Positions 38,372 to 54,460 of a stretch of 59,879 nt of DNA are shown here, piece after piece; the first letter of the stretch is position 1, and each line of letters begins with the position of its first letter. The DNA comes from Vulcanimicrobiota bacterium (GTDB lineage Bacteria > Vulcanimicrobiota > Xenobia > Xenobiales > JADMJV01): positions 1-59,879 of the forward strand of contig JBFWNU010000014.1 of NCBI GenBank assembly GCA_050250895.1. The letters run 5' to 3'. The notes below the pieces were generated by a model that was not told where the DNA came from, did not search any database, and saw only the letters and a program-made list of their open reading frames with translations. The position numbers were made by a program, and so were the translations under genes.

Positions 38372-38457
38372 CCCTCCCCATACGACAAGTTTCGTCGGCC
38401 CCCTGCGCGCACATCCGTTCGAAAGGTTGAGAAACTTTCACGGAGAACTAACCCTTG

Positions 38458-40908
38458 ATGGCTCTGGAACATGTCCTCTCTCGCTTTGTCCGCGACGAGA
38501 CCAAGAAAGGCAACCTTGCCGCCCTGAAAACGGTCGAACCGCGCGCGGCCGACTATCGCGATTGGCCCGACCGGCTGCGTCCCGAACTGGTCGAGGCCAT
38601 GGTGGGCCGCGGCATCGCGCGACCCTATTCGCATCAGGCCGAAGCCATCGAACTGGTGCTCGAGGGTCATCACACCGTGGTGGTGACTCCCACCGCCTCA
38701 GGCAAGACGGTGTGTTACAACCTGCCGGTGGTTCACTCGGTGCTTGAGGATCCCACCTCGCGCGCCCTCTACATGTTTCCCACCAAGGCTCTCAGCCAGG
38801 ACCAGCTGGCCGAGCTGATGGCTCTCGATCAGGCGGCCGGCACCCGGTTGGGCGTTTTTACCTACGATGGCGATACTCCCAGCGACGCTCGCCGGGCCAT
38901 CCGCTCGCGGGGGCACGTGGTCATCACCAATCCCGACATGCTGCACACCGGTATCTTGCCGCATCACACCAAGTGGTCGCGCTTTTTTGGCAACCTCCGC
39001 TACGTCATTCTCGACGAGTTGCACACCTATCGCGGTGTCTTCGGCAGTCATCTGGCCAATGTCTTGCGCAGGCTGCGGCGCATCTGCGAGTTTCACGGGG
39101 CCAATCCCACCTTCATTATGTGCTCGGCCACCATCGCCAATCCCAAGGAGCTGGCCGAGAAATTGATCGAGGATACGGTTCGCCTGGTCGACCGCAACGG
39201 GGCTCCCGCGGGCAAGAAGACCATGGTCTTCTACAACCCGCCCATCCTCAACAAGGAGCTGGGCATTCGCCGCTCCTATCTGTCGGCCACCCGGCGCATC
39301 GCCTCGCTGTTTCTGCGTGAAGAGATTCGCAGCATCGTGTTTGCCTCGTCGCGACTCAATGTCGAGGTGCTCACCCGCTATCTCAAAGACCGGTTCGAGC
39401 GCACTCGCGCCGAAGAGGGTCGTATTCGAGGCTACCGAGGCGGTTATCTTCCCAGCGCCCGGCGCGAGATCGAAAAGGGCCTGCGTGAAGGCGAGATCCA
39501 CGGGGTGGTCAGCACCAACGCCCTGGAGCTTGGCATTGACATCGGGGCGCTCGAGGTGGCCATTCTGGCGGGCTATCCCGGCACTGTGGCCAGTACCTGG
39601 CAGCAGGCCGGGCGAGCCGGCCGACGCCAGGGCGAGGCAGCCGTCATCCTGGTGGGTCGCAGCGACCCTCTCGACCAGTTCTTGATGCAGCATCCCGATT
39701 ATTTCTTCGGAGCCAGTCCCGAACACGCCCTGGTCAATCCCGACAACCTGGCGATTCTGGTCAGCCATATCAAGTGCGCCACCTTCGAGTTGCCCCTCGA
39801 AGAGGGCGAAAAGTTCGGCACGGCCGAGGTCACCGAGATCGCCGAATTTCTGGCCGAGAAGGGCGTGCTCCACAAGTCGGGCAACCAGTTCCACTGGACT
39901 CAAGAGGCCTACCCGGCCGACGGCATCTCGTTGCGTAGCGCCTCGCCCGAGAACTTCGTCATCATGGATCTCGACCGCAACAACCGGGTCATCGCCGAGG
40001 TGGATTGGTCGGCCGCCCCCTCCACCGTCTATGAAGACGCCATTTACATGTGCGAGGGCAAGACCTACCACGTCAAGCGCCTCGACTATGACCAGCGTCG
40101 GGCCTACGTGCGGGCGGTGGGGGTCGACTATTATACCGATGCCATCACCTCGACCTCGGTCAAGATTCTCGACGGCTTCGAGCGGGAGGAGCGGGAATCG
40201 TTGGTCACTCGCGAGCATGGTGAGGTGCATGTGACCTGGCGGGTCTCGGGCTTCAAAAAGATCAAATTCGATTCCCGCGAGAATGTCGGCTATGGAGAGG
40301 TCAATCTGCCCGACCACGAGATGCATACCACCAGCTTCTGGCTCACCCTCGACCACGGTCTGCTGGCCAATCTGGGCTACGCCCGCAGCGACTTACTCGA
40401 TGGCGTGGTGGGACTAGCCTATGCTCTGCATCATCTGGCTCCCTTCTATTTGATGTGTGACATCCACGACCTCAATCGGTGTGTCGGTGATCGCGCGGCC
40501 AACTGGTTCGCTGATGAAGAGCGGCAGGGTAGGGGAAGAATCCAACTGGGCGACGAGAGTGACGAGCCCGAGCAGAGTCAGGAGACCTGGCTGCGCATCG
40601 GCGTGTTGCCCGAATCGAACCAGGACCAGCTGAGCCAGCGGCTTGACGAACTGGGGGTCTTCGAGCCTACCATCTTTCTCTACGACAACTACCCCGGCGG
40701 AATGGGCTTCTCTCCCCAACTCTACGACCAATTCGACGAGCTTTTGGCCCACGCTCGCCACCTGCTCGAGAACTGTCCCTGCGAGTCGGGCTGTCCGTCG
40801 TGCGTGGGGCCGCCCAACGAGGTGGGCAATCTCGCCCGCGAAGTCGGCTTGAGCATTCTCAAAGGGCTTGAAGTCGGCGCCAATCCGCTGCTGGCGGCGG
40901 GGGTCTGA
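38458..40908 (+). CDS. MrfA/YprA/Hrq1-type DEAH helicase with DUF1998 zinc domain
   Basis: TASGKT, PTKAL-QDQ, DELH, SATIANP, QQAGRAGRR, C...CPC-x-x-GCPSC. Confidence 0.92.
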   Translation: MALEHVLSRFVRDETKKGNLAALKTVEPRAADYRDWPDRLRPELVEAMVGRGIARPYSHQAEAIELVLEGHHTVVVTPTASGKTVCYNLPVVHSVLEDPTSRALYMFPTKALSQDQLAELMALDQAAGTRLGVFTYDGDTPSDARRAIRSRGHVVITNPDMLHTGILPHHTKWSRFFGNLRYVILDELHTYRGVFGSHLANVLRRLRRICEFHGANPTFIMCSATIANPKELAEKLIEDTVRLVDRNGAPAGKKTMVFYNPPILNKELGIRRSYLSATRRIASLFLREEIRSIVFASSRLNVEVLTRYLKDRFERTRAEEGRIRGYRGGYLPSARREIEKGLREGEIHGVVSTNALELGIDIGALEVAILAGYPGTVASTWQQAGRAGRRQGEAAVILVGRSDPLDQFLMQHPDYFFGASPEHALVNPDNLAILVSHIKCATFELPLEEGEKFGTAEVTEIAEFLAEKGVLHKSGNQFHWTQEAYPADGISLRSASPENFVIMDLDRNNRVIAEVDWSAAPSTVYEDAIYMCEGKTYHVKRLDYDQRRAYVRAVGVDYYTDAITSTSVKILDGFEREERESLVTREHGEVHVTWRVSGFKKIKFDSRENVGYGEVNLPDHEMHTTSFWLTLDHGLLANLGYARSDLLDGVVGLAYALHHLAPFYLMCDIHDLNRCVGDRAANWFADEERQGRGRIQLGDESDEPEQSQETWLRIGVLPESNQDQLSQRLDELGVFEPTIFLYDNYPGGMGFSPQLYDQFDELLAHARHLLENCPCESGCPSCVGPPNEVGNLAREVGLSILKGLEVGANPLLAAGV

Positions 40909-44356: not shown

Positions 44357-48052
<3,696 letters not shown>

Positions 48053-49376: not shown

Positions 49377-49802
49377 ATGCACGCCAACCAGAAGCAACTA
49401 TCCAAACAGACCGCCGTCTATCAACTTCAGCAAAGAGCCAGACTCGAGCGATTCTCCTGTCTGGCCTCGGGCTACGAGCAAGCGGCCTGCTGTCTGGAAA
49501 ACGTGGCGGGAGAGACTCTCGACGACATTTATCGCGAGGCTCACCAGAGCGAGCGGTCCTGGTCGAAGCTTAAGCCCTGGATCATGGCCGCTTTCTGGCT
49601 GGCCACTTGCTGTCTGATCGGGGTGTTGGCCTGGGCGGCCGGCGCCACCAGCGCCGAATTGATGTTGTTCGCCATCTGTACGCCGTTCCTGGGCGTCGTG
49701 GCGGCTAGCATCGCGGCCGGGCTCTGCCACGACCAGATGGTTCGGAGCAACGAGATCCAGCAGGCCTGCGGCACCGCCTGGAGGCTGGCCACCGGAAGCT
49801 AA
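49377..49802 (+). CDS. Hypothetical 2-TM membrane protein
   Basis: GAGGAGG SD; two hydrophobic helices. Confidence 0.65.
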   Translation: MHANQKQLSKQTAVYQLQQRARLERFSCLASGYEQAACCLENVAGETLDDIYREAHQSERSWSKLKPWIMAAFWLATCCLIGVLAWAAGATSAELMLFAICTPFLGVVAASIAAGLCHDQMVRSNEIQQACGTAWRLATGS

Positions 49803-49842: not shown

Positions 49843-52497
49843 ATGGATTCTCGCGAGTTGCTGCGCCGTCGCCTGGTGGCTAACGGCTTTCTGCGGGCCA
49901 CCCCGGGCCAGCCCATCGTATTACGGGATGGCGCGCCGGCCCCCTGGATCCTCTATCTTTGGAACGAGAGCCTCGACTCTCAGGGAGCTCGCCTGATGGC
50001 CGACTGCTTCCTGGCCGAACTCCAACACTTTCGCTCGCGCCAGTTGGCCTGCCTTGGCTATACCGGCATGCCGATGTTGCTGGGTTGCCTGCTTGGGGGG
50101 GAGGGTTACACCGGGCTCTGTGTGCGCGACGAGCGCAAGCCGCACGGCACCTGTCGGCGTGTCGACGGCCCTGGCGACCGCTCTCGACCGGTGGTGGTGC
50201 TCGACGACTCGATCAGCTCAGGCCACAACATGACCCGGGCTATCGAGGCCCTAGAGCAAGAAGGCTTCACCGTCGAAGGCGCGCTCTGCCTGGTGCGCTT
50301 TCCCTGGCGAGGAGGCTTCGAGCGACTGGCCGCTCTCGGCTACCAGTGCCGTGCCGTGTTTGACGATGTCTGGACCGACCTCGAGTGCCGACCGCTGGAT
50401 TTCGTTCCCGGCTATCAGGGTCCCGAACCCCGGTGGGGCGAGGCCTTGCCCGACGGCCTGCATCCGACCCAGGCCGCGCGACGAATGATCGAGCAACTGC
50501 TAGCGGGGGCGGCCCTACCTCGGCCTCCGGCGCGGTTCGATACCGACTATCAGGCTCCGGGCGGGGTCTTCATCAGTTTGCGCAGCGTGCCAGACGACTA
50601 TCGGCGAGCCCGCGATGGCTTCTGGCACTTCGACCCCGAGCAAGCAGACTTCGGGCGGGATCTGGCCCTGGCCGCTCAGGCCCTGGTGACCAACTGCCGG
50701 CCTCGCTTGCGGACTCTTGACGGACTCAAGCTCGGGCTCTCTTTGCTCGGCCCCTTTGAAAAAGTGAAGCCCGGTCAGTGCGACTTCAATGCCTATGGCG
50801 TCGTGGCCCGCAGCCGGGGTCTGGGCTCCAAGCTCGGCGGAGCCCTGCCGAACACCCAGGTCATCCACAACACCGAGCATCAGTTGCGCCACGCGCGCTG
50901 GACCAACGCTTGCATTTTCGACTATGAGCCGATGGACTATTACCGCTACACCGTCGAAAAACTGGTCGAGCCCGGCCACCGCTGGCTGGCCTATGGCGGC
51001 AGCACGCCCACCGACGCCTGGGCCGTGCCGGCTCAGGGTCAGGCCATGCTCGACTTCGTCGCCGAGGTGATGGCTGGTCAGGGGAACGAGGACGACCTTT
51101 GCTCACAAGTTCGTTTCGGGCCCGAGTTTCTGCCCGTTCCCGTAGATGCCGTGGCCGTCACCCTCTACCATCGAGGCATCGTCGGCTGCGGCATGGCGTA
51201 TGGAGACAGCCTCGAGCGCTGCCTGTTTCGGGCCGCTCGACTGGCTGCCTCAGACCCACGAGCCGCTTCGACCACGGCGGTTTCGGTCACGATTTTTCAC
51301 GACCAGGAGCAAACAGCCAGCGAGCCCGCCACCAACAAGATGCGGCCGGGTCTTGACGGGGTATCGGTCTTTCAGGCTGATCGGGTCGGTTTTTTTCTTC
51401 CCTCGGTTTGCGTCTATCAGAACTGGGACCGCGACCAGACCCGGCGGGCACTGCTGGACAAGGTGGGGATCGGCACCGGCGGGCGCTGGGCGATCTATCC
51501 CACCGTGACCTGGCTTTCCGGCCCGAGCGGCCCCTGCAAGTTGCGCTTTGGTTTTCGCGAGCGGGCCCAAATGCCGGGCCACGCGCTCGAGCTGTTGGCC
51601 GGCTATCTGGCTCGGTCCATCGACGATTCGGGGCTGCCGGCCGCCTACTATTACCCCATCGGAGACCAGATCCTTGCCCGAGGCAGCGTGGCCCGAGCGG
51701 CTCTGAGCCTTTATGCCCTCGAACAAGCGGCCCTGGTGCTGGGTCGCGACGACTGGCTCGAGCTAGCTCGGCGGGGCTATGCGGGGCTGGTGCCCGAGAC
51801 CCCTATCGATGGAGCCCTCACTCTGCTGGCGACGGGGTCTTTGCAGCTGATCGAGGAGGTGGCGGGGATGGTCTGCCCCGATGGCCGGATCACCCCCCGG
51901 GCTGATAGCCGAGGAGTGGGTTCCGACCACGACTTTCTGCCCGGCACGGTCTTGCTGGCCCTGGCGCGCCGGGGTCGGCTGCCTGACCTCGAAGCTTGCC
52001 TTGATTTCTACCGGCGCCGTTTCGGGCTGATCCATCCCTGGGGCATGGTGGGCTGGCAAACCCAGGCCTGGGAGGCCATCCACGCTCTTGACCCCAGGCC
52101 AGAATATGCCGAGTTTGTCTTTGCCATGGCCGATTGGGCCCTCGACTATCAAGAGGAGTCGACGGGCGGCTTCATGACCGGGCTGCACCCTGATGGCCCG
52201 AGCTTTCACACTGGCTTTGTGGCCGAGGGGCTTTGTGCCGCCTGGCGGCTGGCCCGCCGAGTGGCCCCCGAGAAAGAGGCAGCCTATGGCCAGGCCTTCG
52301 CCCGAGCCATGGATTTTCTGGCCCAGCTGGTGTTGCTGCCCGAGGACGCCTTCGCTCTCACCAATCCCGAACGGGCCGTGGGCGGAGTGCGCGGCTCGCT
52401 CAACACCTCGTGGGTGCGCAACGATTTCGTGGCCCACTCGCTGCTGGCTTTGGTTTACGGTCATGTCTTGACCCACGGGGATTTGGTGGGAAAATAG
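49843..52497 (+). CDS. Multidomain enzyme: OPRT-like phosphoribosyltransferase + two AMMECR1-like domains + helical (alpha/alpha-like) C-terminal domain
   Basis: RDERKPHG loop and VVVLDDSISSG; GGVFISL...SLLG...YGVV...GGALP; VTL...GC...AA-DPR...PGLDGV...FLPSV. Confidence 0.75.
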   Translation: MDSRELLRRRLVANGFLRATPGQPIVLRDGAPAPWILYLWNESLDSQGARLMADCFLAELQHFRSRQLACLGYTGMPMLLGCLLGGEGYTGLCVRDERKPHGTCRRVDGPGDRSRPVVVLDDSISSGHNMTRAIEALEQEGFTVEGALCLVRFPWRGGFERLAALGYQCRAVFDDVWTDLECRPLDFVPGYQGPEPRWGEALPDGLHPTQAARRMIEQLLAGAALPRPPARFDTDYQAPGGVFISLRSVPDDYRRARDGFWHFDPEQADFGRDLALAAQALVTNCRPRLRTLDGLKLGLSLLGPFEKVKPGQCDFNAYGVVARSRGLGSKLGGALPNTQVIHNTEHQLRHARWTNACIFDYEPMDYYRYTVEKLVEPGHRWLAYGGSTPTDAWAVPAQGQAMLDFVAEVMAGQGNEDDLCSQVRFGPEFLPVPVDAVAVTLYHRGIVGCGMAYGDSLERCLFRAARLAASDPRAASTTAVSVTIFHDQEQTASEPATNKMRPGLDGVSVFQADRVGFFLPSVCVYQNWDRDQTRRALLDKVGIGTGGRWAIYPTVTWLSGPSGPCKLRFGFRERAQMPGHALELLAGYLARSIDDSGLPAAYYYPIGDQILARGSVARAALSLYALEQAALVLGRDDWLELARRGYAGLVPETPIDGALTLLATGSLQLIEEVAGMVCPDGRITPRADSRGVGSDHDFLPGTVLLALARRGRLPDLEACLDFYRRRFGLIHPWGMVGWQTQAWEAIHALDPRPEYAEFVFAMADWALDYQEESTGGFMTGLHPDGPSFHTGFVAEGLCAAWRLARRVAPEKEAAYGQAFARAMDFLAQLVLLPEDAFALTNPERAVGGVRGSLNTSWVRNDFVAHSLLALVYGHVLTHGDLVGK

Positions 52498-52512
52498 CGA
52501 AAAGGGGTGTCT

Positions 52513-53376
52513 ATGAGTCAAATCGGTCCGAACTTTCAACCCGAGTCCTTCCAGGTGCGCAACCCGTTCTCGGGTGGGCCGCCACCCACCGGTAACGGCT
52601 GGATGGCCCCCAACCCTCAGGTCCTGCAGTCGTTCTTCCAGGCCTTGTCCCAGTTGTTCGCCCTCTGGGGGCAGTTCGGCGGCCAGCCGCAGCCGACACC
52701 TTTCCCTTATCCACCCATCCCCGAGGTCATCGCCGAGGCGCCTCCGCCGATCTTCGAAGCTCCGCCCCGGCCGATTCCCGAAGTGATCTTCGAAGCTCCG
52801 CCCCGGCCCATCCCCGAGGTGATCTACGAGGCCCCGCCCCGGCCCATCCCCGAGGTGATCTACGAGGCCCCGCCCCGGCCGATTCCCGAAGTGATCTTCG
52901 AGGCTCCGCCTCGGCCCATCCCCGAGGTGATCTACGAGGCCCCGCCCCGGCCGATTCCCGAAGTGATCTTCGAGGCTCCGCCTCGGCCCATCCCCGAGGT
53001 GATCGTCGAAGCTCCGCCCCGGCCCATCCCCGAGGTGATCGTCGAAGCTCCGCCCCGGCCCATCCCCGAGGTGATCTACGAGGCTCCGCCCCGGCCGATT
53101 CCCGAAGTGATCTTCGAAGCTCCGCCCCGGCCGATTCCCGAGGTGATCTTCGAAGCTCCGCCCCGGCCCATCCCCGAGGTGATCTACGAGGCTCCGCCCC
53201 GGCCGATTCCCGAGGTGATCTTCGAAGCTCCGCCCCGGCCCATCCCCGAGGTGATCTACGAGGCGCCGCCCCGACCGATTCCCGAAGTAATCGTCGAAGC
53301 TCCGCCCCGGCCCATCCCCGAGGTGATCTACGAGGCTCCGCCGCCAATTATCGAGGCTCCTCCTCGTCCTTACTAG
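52513..53376 (+). CDS. Pro-rich tandem-repeat protein
   Basis: About 80-aa unique N-terminus, then 16 x EAPPRPIPEVI[F/Y/V]; variation between units is mostly synonymous, supporting this frame. Confidence 0.85.
   Translation: MSQIGPNFQPESFQVRNPFSGGPPPTGNGWMAPNPQVLQSFFQALSQLFALWGQFGGQPQPTPFPYPPIPEVIAEAPPPIFEAPPRPIPEVIFEAPPRPIPEVIYEAPPRPIPEVIYEAPPRPIPEVIFEAPPRPIPEVIYEAPPRPIPEVIFEAPPRPIPEVIVEAPPRPIPEVIVEAPPRPIPEVIYEAPPRPIPEVIFEAPPRPIPEVIFEAPPRPIPEVIYEAPPRPIPEVIFEAPPRPIPEVIYEAPPRPIPEVIVEAPPRPIPEVIYEAPPPIIEAPPRPY
52756..53331 (+). repeat. 16 x 36-bp coding tandem repeat
   Basis: 576 bp = 16 units, with degenerate units on both flanks. Confidence 0.95.
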
Positions 53377-53413
53377 CCCGGCGGGTCGTCTCGGCCCCAT
53401 TGCGTTAAGCTGT

Positions 53414-54460
53414 TTGGTCCTGGGTTTGCTGGCTCTGCTGGCCTGGCCGATTCCGGCCGCCCAGGCCCTCGTGTTGCGCAACCTGACCCTGGAGGGTAAG
53501 TCGGTCTCTGTGACCATTGCCGAGGGCAAGATCCAGTCGGTCGGTGGTTCCGGCCCGGGACTCGACTGCAAGGGTCTGACGGTGGTTCCGGGCTTCATCG
53601 ATACCCACGTTCATCTGGGCTTCTTCAAGCCACGCGAGTTGCTCGAGGGTGGATTGACCACGGTGCGCGACCTCGGCTGGTCACCTGAACTGGCCTTTGG
53701 GTGGAAGAAGGCCAGCCGTCAGCCAGAATGGGGCCCCCTGGTGCTGGTGGCAGGCCCGATCGTTACCGTGAAGGGTGGCTATCCGACTCGGGCCGGATGG
53801 GCCCCTGCCGACGCCGCCGCGGTCTTTCGCCCGAGGATGGTCAAGACGTTGCGGGAGTCGGGCGCCTCGGTCGTCAAGGTCGCTCTGGAGCCTCGCGCCG
53901 GCCCCACGCTGTCCCTGGGCGAGCTCGAGCAGTTGGTCCGTGAGGCCCACCAGCAAAAGCTGCGAGTGGCCGCCCACGTCAGCACTCTGGCCGAACTCGA
54001 CAAGGCCCTCGACGCGGGCGTCGACGAGTTGGTGCATCTGGTTTTTGATGACGTGCGAATCCCCGACGCGACTCTGGCGCGAATCGTGGCCCAAAAGGTG
54101 GTGGTGGCGCCGACTTTGCGAGTGGGGCCAGGCGCGAACCGGCTCGCGAATCTGGCCCGGCTCGAGAAGGCCGGGGGCCGCATCGTCTTTGGAACCGACC
54201 TCGGCAACGGCGGACGAGCCGGCATCGACATTGAAGAATTGCAGTGGATGGTGCGGGCCGGGCTGCCGGCCGAGCGCATCCTGCGTTCGGCCACCCGCGA
54301 CGCGGCCGACTGGCTGGGGATGCCCGAGCGAGGGCGTATCCGAGTCGGCGCGGTGGCCGATCTATTGGTGGTAGAGGGTGACCCTCGCCAGGATTGGACG
54401 CGGCTGGGTCGCCCCCGCCTGGTGATGCGTCAGGGTCGGATCATCGTCAACCGAATCTAG
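53414..54460 (+). CDS. Exported amidohydrolase-superfamily protein (start uncertain)
   Basis: PGFIDTHVH, TTVRDLG, VAAH, H, GTD, G-I-x-G-x-ADL. Confidence 0.88.
   Translation: MVLGLLALLAWPIPAAQALVLRNLTLEGKSVSVTIAEGKIQSVGGSGPGLDCKGLTVVPGFIDTHVHLGFFKPRELLEGGLTTVRDLGWSPELAFGWKKASRQPEWGPLVLVAGPIVTVKGGYPTRAGWAPADAAAVFRPRMVKTLRESGASVVKVALEPRAGPTLSLGELEQLVREAHQQKLRVAAHVSTLAELDKALDAGVDELVHLVFDDVRIPDATLARIVAQKVVVAPTLRVGPGANRLANLARLEKAGGRIVFGTDLGNGGRAGIDIEELQWMVRAGLPAERILRSATRDAADWLGMPERGRIRVGAVADLLVVEGDPRQDWTRLGRPRLVMRQGRIIVNRI

Follow-up and report, generated by a model that had tools for sequence, protein, structure and literature searches.

The window, positions 1–59,879 of contig JBFWNU010000014.1 of a Vulcanimicrobiota bacterium (host genome 9.5 Mb in 17 contigs, 99.6% complete), encodes an enzyme that joins an orotate phosphoribosyltransferase (OPRT)-like domain to two domains of the AMMECR1 fold and a helical toroid, followed on the same strand by a gene for a repeat protein. 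The finding is wider than the coordinates of the enzyme: enzyme and repeat protein form a pair that is conserved among relatives and has the look of a system for modifying peptides that is still undescribed. The pair is laid out as follows.

49843 to 52497, + strand: enzyme open reading frame (ORF), ATG start, 884 aa, TAG stop at 52495–52497
49843 to 50397, + strand: domain 1 (aa 1–185), OPRT-like type I phosphoribosyltransferase (PRTase), from sequence profile and VIA
50425 to 51018, + strand: domain 2 (aa 195–392), divergent AMMECR1-fold domain, from model fold and hhalign
51019 to 51567, + strand: domain 3 (aa 393–575), canonical AMMECR1 domain, from Pfam PF01871 and profile against the PDB
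51568 to 52497, + strand: domain 4 (aa 576–884, plus stop), (alpha/alpha)6 toroid, from VIA fold match
52513 to 53376, + strand: partner repeat gene, 287 aa, its ATG 16 nt after the enzyme stop and preceded by AAAGGGG
52749 to 53342, + strand: 36-nt tandem array inside the partner gene (Tandem Repeats Finder (TRF): 16.5 copies, 87% matches, score 873)

We modelled the whole enzyme with AlphaFold2 from an alignment of 30 family sequences (A1) and compared structures with the PDB by VIA and Foldseek. The model has a mean predicted local distance difference test score (pLDDT) of 90.6 and a predicted template modelling score of 0.90; from it and from sequence profiles, the order PRTase–AMMECR1–AMMECR1–toroid is established as the predicted architecture. 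Single-sequence scans were weak, with Pfam Pribosyltran reaching 12 bits on the enzyme. A 30-sequence profile matched OPRTs in the PDB (2wns_A, E = 1.1e-15; 2p1z_A, E = 1.2e-14), and in VIA residues 1–182 superposed on Mycobacterium tuberculosis OPRT 5hkl_A with a Z-score of 23.8 and a root-mean-square deviation (rmsd) of 1.6 over 167 aligned residues; Foldseek matched domain 1 to 5hki_A (E = 7.8e-10). An initial annotation, made from the sequence alone, had described an OPRT-like domain with an intact phosphoribosyl pyrophosphate (PRPP) motif, and that description holds: the PRPP loop VVVLDDSISSG occupies residues 117–127. The same annotation called the flexible loop RDERKPHG (residues 95–102) altered, which was mistaken, as the stretch VRDERKPHGT aligns with VRPERKGHGT of A. 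pernix OPRT. D121, D122, S126, G127 and R95 are invariant among the 30 homologues of A1, and K99 is kept in at least 90% of them. Invariant or almost so across phyla, the PRPP motif and the catalytic loop residues R95 and K99 make PRPP chemistry plausible for this domain.

OPRTs are the best named sequence matches of the enzyme, which could on that ground be the cell's own OPRT (pyrE) with extra domains. It scored 33.2 bits (library scan) or 36.5 bits (genome search) against TIGR00336, whose cut-off is 106.8, whereas the same genome has a separate pyrE (C1:361273–361821) scoring 121.1 bits. Moreover, a search of 15 same-family genomes with this query turned the enzyme up in none of them. We rejected it as the host PyrE, its score lying below the cut-off and the host having its own pyrE elsewhere, and give that identity next to no credence; the earlier judgement that it does not serve pyrimidine synthesis was sound.

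Both middle domains adopt the AMMECR1 fold in the model. Domain 3 is matched by Pfam PF01871 at 44.5 bits (cut-off 25; best stretch 474–545) and, as a profile, by 1zq7_A (2.6e-15), 1vaj (1.1e-12) and 1wsc (9.2e-11). In the window protein it has G-C449-G at the position of the RGChG motif and D471-P-R473-A at that of DxR[aromatic]; of the 30 homologues in A1, 16 have Cys in that column and 12 have Tyr. Domain 2 carries family-specific motifs, ARDGFWHF (256–263) and GGALPNTQ (332–339), and its canonical Cys is replaced. Folded alone from an alignment of its own family (A2), it gave a pLDDT of 92.4, and among 48,161 PDB representatives its sole match at a Z-score of at least 5 was AMMECR1 itself (1zq7_A; Z 13.4, rmsd 4.8, 174 of 201 residues aligned), the next best reaching 4.5. 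The hhalign comparison of domain 2 with domain 3 was weak but collinear over 154 columns (E = 0.0013, probability 18%), aligning ARDGFWHF to the G-x-G-C-G strand and GGALPNTQ to the LLPSV motif, and Pfam AMMECR1 matches domain 2 directly in the homologues P0127 and P0198. The initial annotation had spoken of one degenerate and one clearer AMMECR1 domain; both are indeed AMMECR1 folds, but the supposedly degenerate one is the best-conserved part of the family, with a mean column identity of 57% (A2) against 48% for the whole protein (A1). R247, R254, R257, N355, E362, K373 and E376 are invariant in it, and H262 is present in at least 90% of sequences.

The C-terminal 300 or so residues, correctly recognized at the outset as helical and ending in R-x-DFVAH, form an (alpha/alpha)6 toroid in the model, with the sequence GGVR...VRNDFVAH at its end and R-N-DFVAH at 859–865. 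The structure search by VIA bore out a toroid: the best PDB match of residues 576–877 is the GH76 enzyme 6shm_A (Z 23.0, rmsd 3.0, 276 aligned), with YteR, GH88/105, squalene-hopene cyclases and AGE-type epimerases tied below it at Z-scores of about 19–22. No LanC-like chain appears among the 50 VIA matches listed for the model. By sequence, no Pfam family matched residues 576–884 at E ≤ 1, and a profile of the domain gave a weak, partial squalene-cyclase-like match in the PDB (E = 3e-5). Its invariant residues are R618, R726, W738, Q770, E795, R850, R859, D861 and H865.

Two side observations concern the toroid. The window enzyme is about 50–70 aa shorter than most relatives (884 versus about 940–960 aa) and lacks a toroid stretch that the others keep (around 51780–51840, aa ~645–665; A1 columns ~800–830); model pLDDT is below 50 at residues 655–665. 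Elsewhere in the host, at C4:30893–31543 (L094:448–2175), a 575-aa protein shares the enzyme's C-terminal toroid, with 28% identity over about 200 aa, and gives weak GH127, GH88 and LanM-C matches, and ORFs of about 550–720 aa resembling it occur in two relatives (G018 and G024).

The partner protein begins with about 70 non-repeat residues, which include a predicted amphipathic stretch, PQVLQSFFQALSQLFALWGQF, and continues with 16 exact-pattern units of EAPPRPIPEVI[F/Y/V]. Ten DNA columns vary across these units, 8 of them at third codon positions, and codon differences between units number 354 synonymous against 81 non-synonymous, the latter all in the last codon. Given this third-position variation and synonymous excess, the repeat appears to be translated and selected as protein; by these codon patterns the gene is under purifying selection. 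A sigma-70-like site (52468–52495, + strand; TTGACC, 16-nt spacer, GAAAAT, with TG), noted by its match to the consensus alone, falls within the last codons of the enzyme, just ahead of the repeat gene.

We asked how regularly such a gene accompanies the enzyme by collecting 187 stretches with enzyme relatives from 185,579 genomes (one per species) and keeping the best 80 loci for neighbourhood counts, with neighbour families defined by all-against-all ORF clustering. After the enzyme, its antisense shadows and a radical S-adenosylmethionine (SAM) gene, the commonest neighbour is the repeat-protein cluster. In-frame tandem arrays (TRF; period a multiple of 3, score at least 80, within 3.5 kb outside the enzyme gene) were present in 59 of the 80 loci. 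A motif test, which asked for at least five E-[LIVFM]-x0-1-P in one same-strand ORF no more than 2.6 kb away, was passed by 49 of 80 loci; of the 4391 distal ORFs, those beyond 3.5 kb, only 1 passed it. A same-strand ORF with 11–113 copies of PE[VI] occurs in 32 of 80 loci, the next highest value being 7. Partners in relatives are 90–630 aa long and consist of near-pure P/E/I/V repeats, read as RPIPEVAPEI, GPEV (113 copies in L034), KPEI and IVEVAP, with further variants ERPDIVEVV, PERPELPEF, PEIPET, PDHSEV and VVEFAGP. Over 51 loci the average composition is P 0.24, E 0.20, I 0.14 and V 0.09, and the positions around the Glu read P(−1) 0.68, E, I/V(+1) 0.73, A(+2) 0.35 and P(+3) 0.58. Repeat DNA varies by clade while the peptide motif stays. 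On this sequence evidence, the repeat-protein gene is the one near-universal neighbour of the family and the likeliest substrate of the enzyme.

Partner motif classes track enzyme clades in a FastTree phylogeny of the 75 enzymes that reach 800 aa (of 81 in all, 6 were shorter and left out), which indicates long co-inheritance and is not proof of co-evolution, as relatives share labels. Microbacterium deminutum carries two enzyme copies from different clades, about 25 kb apart on one contig: the first (L028) has PDHSEV repeats downstream, the second (L034) its 113 GPEV-type copies upstream. Both same-order relatives have GIEAPEP repeats upstream of the enzyme. Among the 21 array-negative loci, 8 have an incomplete flank, and array-negative loci of Proteobacteria and Terriglobia encode directly upstream a protein of about 155 aa with 4–6 ELP/EIP motifs and a central helix; of the 10 loci with a homologue of this protein upstream, 7 lack an array. 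Many Pyrinomonadaceae-type repeat proteins (for example L053:5424–5915 and L054:5440–6024) carry ...KKY or ...KKKY at the C terminus, past the last repeat, and have a short Lys-rich N terminus, with no signal peptide evident by eye.

Around this pair the relatives encode a changing set of tailoring enzymes. By cluster count, 32 of the 80 loci have a B12-binding radical SAM gene no farther than 8 kb away; the assignment is Pfam-confirmed in 3 members, and Radical_SAM matched 3 more neighbours of about 650 aa. The two members scored belong to TIGR03975, the maturation radical SAM C-methyltransferases of ribosomally synthesized and post-translationally modified peptides (RiPPs), with 560.6 and 533.5 bits against a cut-off of 281.85. 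Other tailoring clusters among the 80 loci are a 2-oxoglutarate (2OG)-Fe(II) oxygenase (17), a carbamoyltransferase (13) and a radical SAM/SPASM protein (12), the last matching the peptide maturase TIGR03913 at 636.1 bits (cut-off 591.75). Two loci (L019 and L020) have in addition Lant_dehydr_N proteins of about 880 aa, a TP_methylase, an SDR and CmcI-type methyltransferases. In the same-order relatives L096 and L097, an MvdD-type ATP-grasp gene (PF21068; 44.6 and 34.9 bits, cut-off 27) stands between the repeat gene and the enzyme, and the group is flanked by an S8 subtilase and a SAM methyltransferase; apart from a partial match in L077, this ATP-grasp was found neither in the window nor in the other 80 loci. 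The MvdD-type ATP-grasp class activates Glu and Asp carboxylates. In combining a constant core pair with variable tailoring genes, these loci resemble RiPP-like clusters. The initial annotation had remarked that Memo and radical SAM partners are absent. That is true of the window, where a scan of 17 ORFs (38455 to 59632) found no Memo or radical SAM domain, but not of the family, given its B12-binding radical SAM genes. In the host genome no B12-type radical SAM gene lies beside the enzyme, and weak matches occur elsewhere (E = 7e-8 and 2e-4).

Because a repeat-protein gene adjoins it in many soil bacteria, the enzyme is probably of a new, peptide-modifying kind rather than one of nucleotide synthesis. 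That it acts on the adjacent repeat protein we regard, from gene context, as probable; that it serves as signature enzyme in a still undescribed system for modifying peptides, with that protein as substrate, we favour by a slightly smaller measure. In the mechanism we propose, the two AMMECR1-fold domains and the Arg-rich toroid would hold the extended, acidic, proline-rich repeat, and the OPRT-like domain would transfer 5-phosphoribose from PRPP onto each repeat, releasing pyrophosphate. The acceptor would be the side-chain carboxylate of the conserved Glu in P-E-[I/V]-x-P, the most likely candidate because Glu is the sole reactive side chain in the simplest partners (GPEV and KPEI). Domain 2 might bind or further process the phosphoribosyl adduct, and in other lineages the same type of precursor would additionally be tailored by RiPP enzymes. 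Among specific chemistries, PRPP-dependent phosphoribosylation of the repeat Glu ranks first for us, but it is a tentative proposal and unlikely to be correct.

Several points weigh against the peptide-modification reading. We know of no PRPP-dependent peptide modification, and type I PRTases normally use nitrogen nucleophiles; the OPRT-like domain is canonical enough for its acceptor to be, perhaps, a small base resembling orotate. A shared Cys mechanism is unlikely for the AMMECR1-fold domains, since domain 2 has no such Cys and domain 3 keeps it in only 16 of 30 homologues. With its 287 aa, the partner would make a long RiPP precursor, and no RiPP tailoring enzyme, protease or exporter lies beside the pair among the 17 window ORFs. 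The 80 loci are partly related, about 30 of them being Pyrinomonadaceae, and the counts are not independent. Finally, 6 of the 59 arrays do not show the P/E motif in the frame chosen (L007, L008, L014, L025, L027 and L045); in L007 and L008 the motif is present in another ORF.

The initial annotation had proposed a single-chain pathway acting on an unknown substrate, in effect a self-contained small-molecule route, of which the plausibility of PRPP chemistry stands on the conserved residues, while the adjoining repeat-protein gene had been overlooked. In such a route the PRTase would turn an orotate-like base into a nucleotide-like 5-phosphoribosyl compound that the AMMECR1 domains and the toroid modify further, the repeat protein being unrelated or linked at most indirectly, for instance as a carrier or a regulator. 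In its favour, fold and loop put domain 1 very near OPRT, the toroid is similar to six-hairpin enzymes that act on sugars, and PMC2034487 predicted nucleotides or RNA bases as the targets of AMMECR1. Yet the route leaves unexplained both a near-universal same-strand repeat-protein neighbour across phyla and the peptide-directed tailoring enzymes of the relatives, and no other nucleotide-pathway gene is conserved near the enzyme in the 80 loci. We consider it doubtful.

A different division of labour would keep the peptide substrate and have the PRTase domain merely sense or bind PRPP or a nucleotide, leaving the chemistry to the AMMECR1 domains and the toroid. PRTase folds do act as regulators in PyrR- and PurR-type domains, and domain 2 is the most conserved part of the family. 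Structural neighbours in the Atlas offer a lead in the same direction: an AMMECR1–toroid module may exist without the PRTase or fused to an Asp/Asn beta-hydroxylase. Against a sensor, conservation extends beyond the binding loop to the catalytic residues D121/D122 and R95/K99, which are invariant or nearly so, and related PRTase–beta-propeller proteins recur in the same contexts. One of these is encoded in the host genome at C4 (L087:10405–12300, − strand), a 631-aa OPRT-like PRTase fused to a PQQ_2/ACSF4-type beta-propeller, to which the window PRTase domain is 32% identical (29% to the host PyrE). A radical SAM gene and an S8 subtilase lie near it, the C4 match to B12-type radical SAM sitting here and not by the enzyme; no tandem repeat gene was detected near it. 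Another such protein is encoded directly downstream of the family member in L029. We judge a purely sensory PRTase distinctly improbable.

Beyond the pair, the window holds the following genes near the enzyme.

38455 to 40908, + strand: DEAD/Helicase_C/WHD_HRQ1/MZB helicase, 817 aa (Pfam)
44357 to 48052, − strand: Ser/Thr kinase fused to an AAA_16 STAND-type ATPase, 1231 aa (Pfam)
49377 to 49802, + strand: small 141-aa ORF, hydrophobic in places, whose end lies 40 nt ahead of the enzyme
53414 to 54460, + strand: amidohydrolase (Pfam Amidohydro_1, 99 bits), directly downstream of the repeat gene

The window neighbours (a GST, the amidohydrolase, small ORFs, the kinase and the helicase) are conserved with the enzyme in 0–2 of 80 loci. 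The best named match of the amidohydrolase is the Xaa-Pro dipeptidase NF051886 (108 bits against a cut-off of 500), and a homologue of it was found in 0 of 80 related loci; it may be an accessory gene specific to the window, and is the sole accessory candidate there. The 141-aa upstream ORF belongs to no Pfam or NCBIfam family and has no homologue in the 80 related loci. An antisense ORF at 51763–53598 that matched 14 loci proved to be a shadow of the enzyme gene and was dropped.

With a STAND-type kinase and a helicase upstream, a patchy distribution and a hypervariable acidic repeat partner, the locus could also be read as a conflict or defence module or a toxin–antidote pair, in which the PRTase enzyme depletes or alters nucleotides and the acidic repeat is an inhibitor or decoy. 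The enzyme matched 0 PADLOC-DB 2.0 families at E ≤ 1, the kinase and the helicase are conserved with it in only 2 and 1 of 80 loci, respectively, and in relatives the genes around it encode biosynthetic and tailoring enzymes. A defence role seems to us very improbable, more so than any of the peptide or small-molecule routes above.

The family is rare, with 187 matches in the 185,579 species genomes. At E ≤ 1e-3 we found 111 homologous proteins, query included, most of them 900–970 aa long with 94–100% coverage and 32–48% identity, annotated in their sources as 'AMMECR1 domain-containing protein' or 'orotate phosphoribosyltransferase'. The 80 loci fall in Acidobacteriota (Thermoanaerobaculia, Terriglobia, Pyrinomonadaceae and Bryobacteraceae), Actinomycetota (Hamadaea, Microbacterium, Cellulomonas, Actinomycetospora, Mycobacterium and Acidimicrobiia) and Pseudomonadota (Paraburkholderia, Dyella, Acetobacteraceae and Caulobacterales). 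A profile of domain 2 retrieved 625 cluster representatives among 1.84 billion at E ≤ 1e-3, 134 of them at E ≤ 1e-30, and nearly all of its matches sit at about residues 200–400 of proteins of about 900–1000 aa. Searching 30 host relatives with the window query, we found a full-length copy in none of the 15 same-family genomes and in 2 of the 5 from a sister family; the gene is on this account accessory and patchy. A fragment of the enzyme with 93% identity is labelled Candidatus Eremiobacteraeota. In family variants of about 1240 aa, domain 2 is preceded by an inserted PQQ-type beta-propeller, and one variant of 1370 aa adds a C-terminal APH kinase; shorter or split forms were mostly contig-end fragments and were set aside.

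AMMECR1, a fold of archaea and eukaryotes that includes a human disease gene, has posed the question of its biochemical role ever since its structure was solved. GYF domains bind proline-rich peptides. PMC2034487, from 2007, predicted a catalytic role for AMMECR1, pointing to the conserved RGChG cysteine and the DxR[aromatic] motif, and places peptide binders such as GYF in the same RAGNYA fold class. We found no AMMECR1 assay or substrate in the literature, the post-2015 AMMECR1 papers listed being genetics or expression studies; no link between AMMECR1 or a phosphoribosyltransferase, radical SAM and precursor peptides; nothing relevant by title among the listed papers on RiPPs and PRPP; on AMMECR1 with radical SAM, besides PMC2034487, an eLife paper that merely cites Memo–AMMECR1 systems; and no paper describing the enzyme family, in a search that covered the literature on Memo–AMMECR1 gene contexts only in part. 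Because the candidate substrate is encoded next door, the AMMECR1 question becomes directly testable with two genes and a synthetic peptide of the 12-mer, (EAPPRPIPEVIY)2. Should the proposal prove true, Glu phosphoribosylation would be a new post-translational chemistry whose products, ribosomal natural products or modified proteins, would form a new class, the AMMECR1 fold would gain its first substrate class, and RiPP and protein-modification biology would gain an enzyme class as well as a modification. It would also account for a set of entries from soil Acidobacteriota and Actinomycetota that are labelled 'orotate phosphoribosyltransferase / AMMECR1 domain-containing protein'.

Set beside known systems, the enzyme shares parts with several. 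With the short actinobacterial and archaeal OPRTs (5hkl/5hki, 2p1z and 2yzk) it has in common the type I PRTase fold (Z 23.8, rmsd 1.6), the PRPP loop with its acidic pair and the flexible loop R-x-E-R-K-x-H-G-T; unlike them, its PRTase is one of four domains and is linked to a repeat gene, not to pyrimidine genes. Both middle domains have the fold of AMMECR1 and AmmeMemoRadiSam protein A (PF01871 and TIGR04335), but here the unit is duplicated in tandem, a Memo partner is missing, domain 2 has motifs of its own and the Cys of domain 3 is lost in 14 of 30 homologues. The enzyme scores 24.6 bits against TIGR04335 (cut-off 99), and the radical SAM protein of the relatives is of the TIGR03975 B12 type, a RiPP C-methyltransferase, in contrast to the AmmeMemoRadiSam system.

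The toroid is like those of the six-hairpin enzymes (GH76, YteR/GH105, GH88 and squalene-hopene cyclase) over about 250–290 residues, with Z-scores of 20–23; it differs from them in its low identity (10–18%), in belonging to no Pfam family and in its conserved residues (five Arg, Q, E, D, H and W), which are family-specific. The PRTase–PQQ-type beta-propeller protein of the host has a related PRTase head (32% identity), but in it the propeller replaces the AMMECR1 domains and the toroid, and it lies at another host locus (C4). Multi-core or repeat precursors are familiar from RiPP clusters, as in proteusin-type methylation by B12-dependent radical SAM enzymes and in graspetide formation by ATP-grasp enzymes; to our knowledge, no known RiPP class uses a PRTase–AMMECR1–toroid fusion. 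The resemblance to these clusters, seen here from genes alone, lies in a precursor-like gene beside the enzyme and in the TIGR03975, TIGR03913, MvdD-type ATP-grasp, LanB-N-like and 2OG oxygenase genes that its relatives carry.

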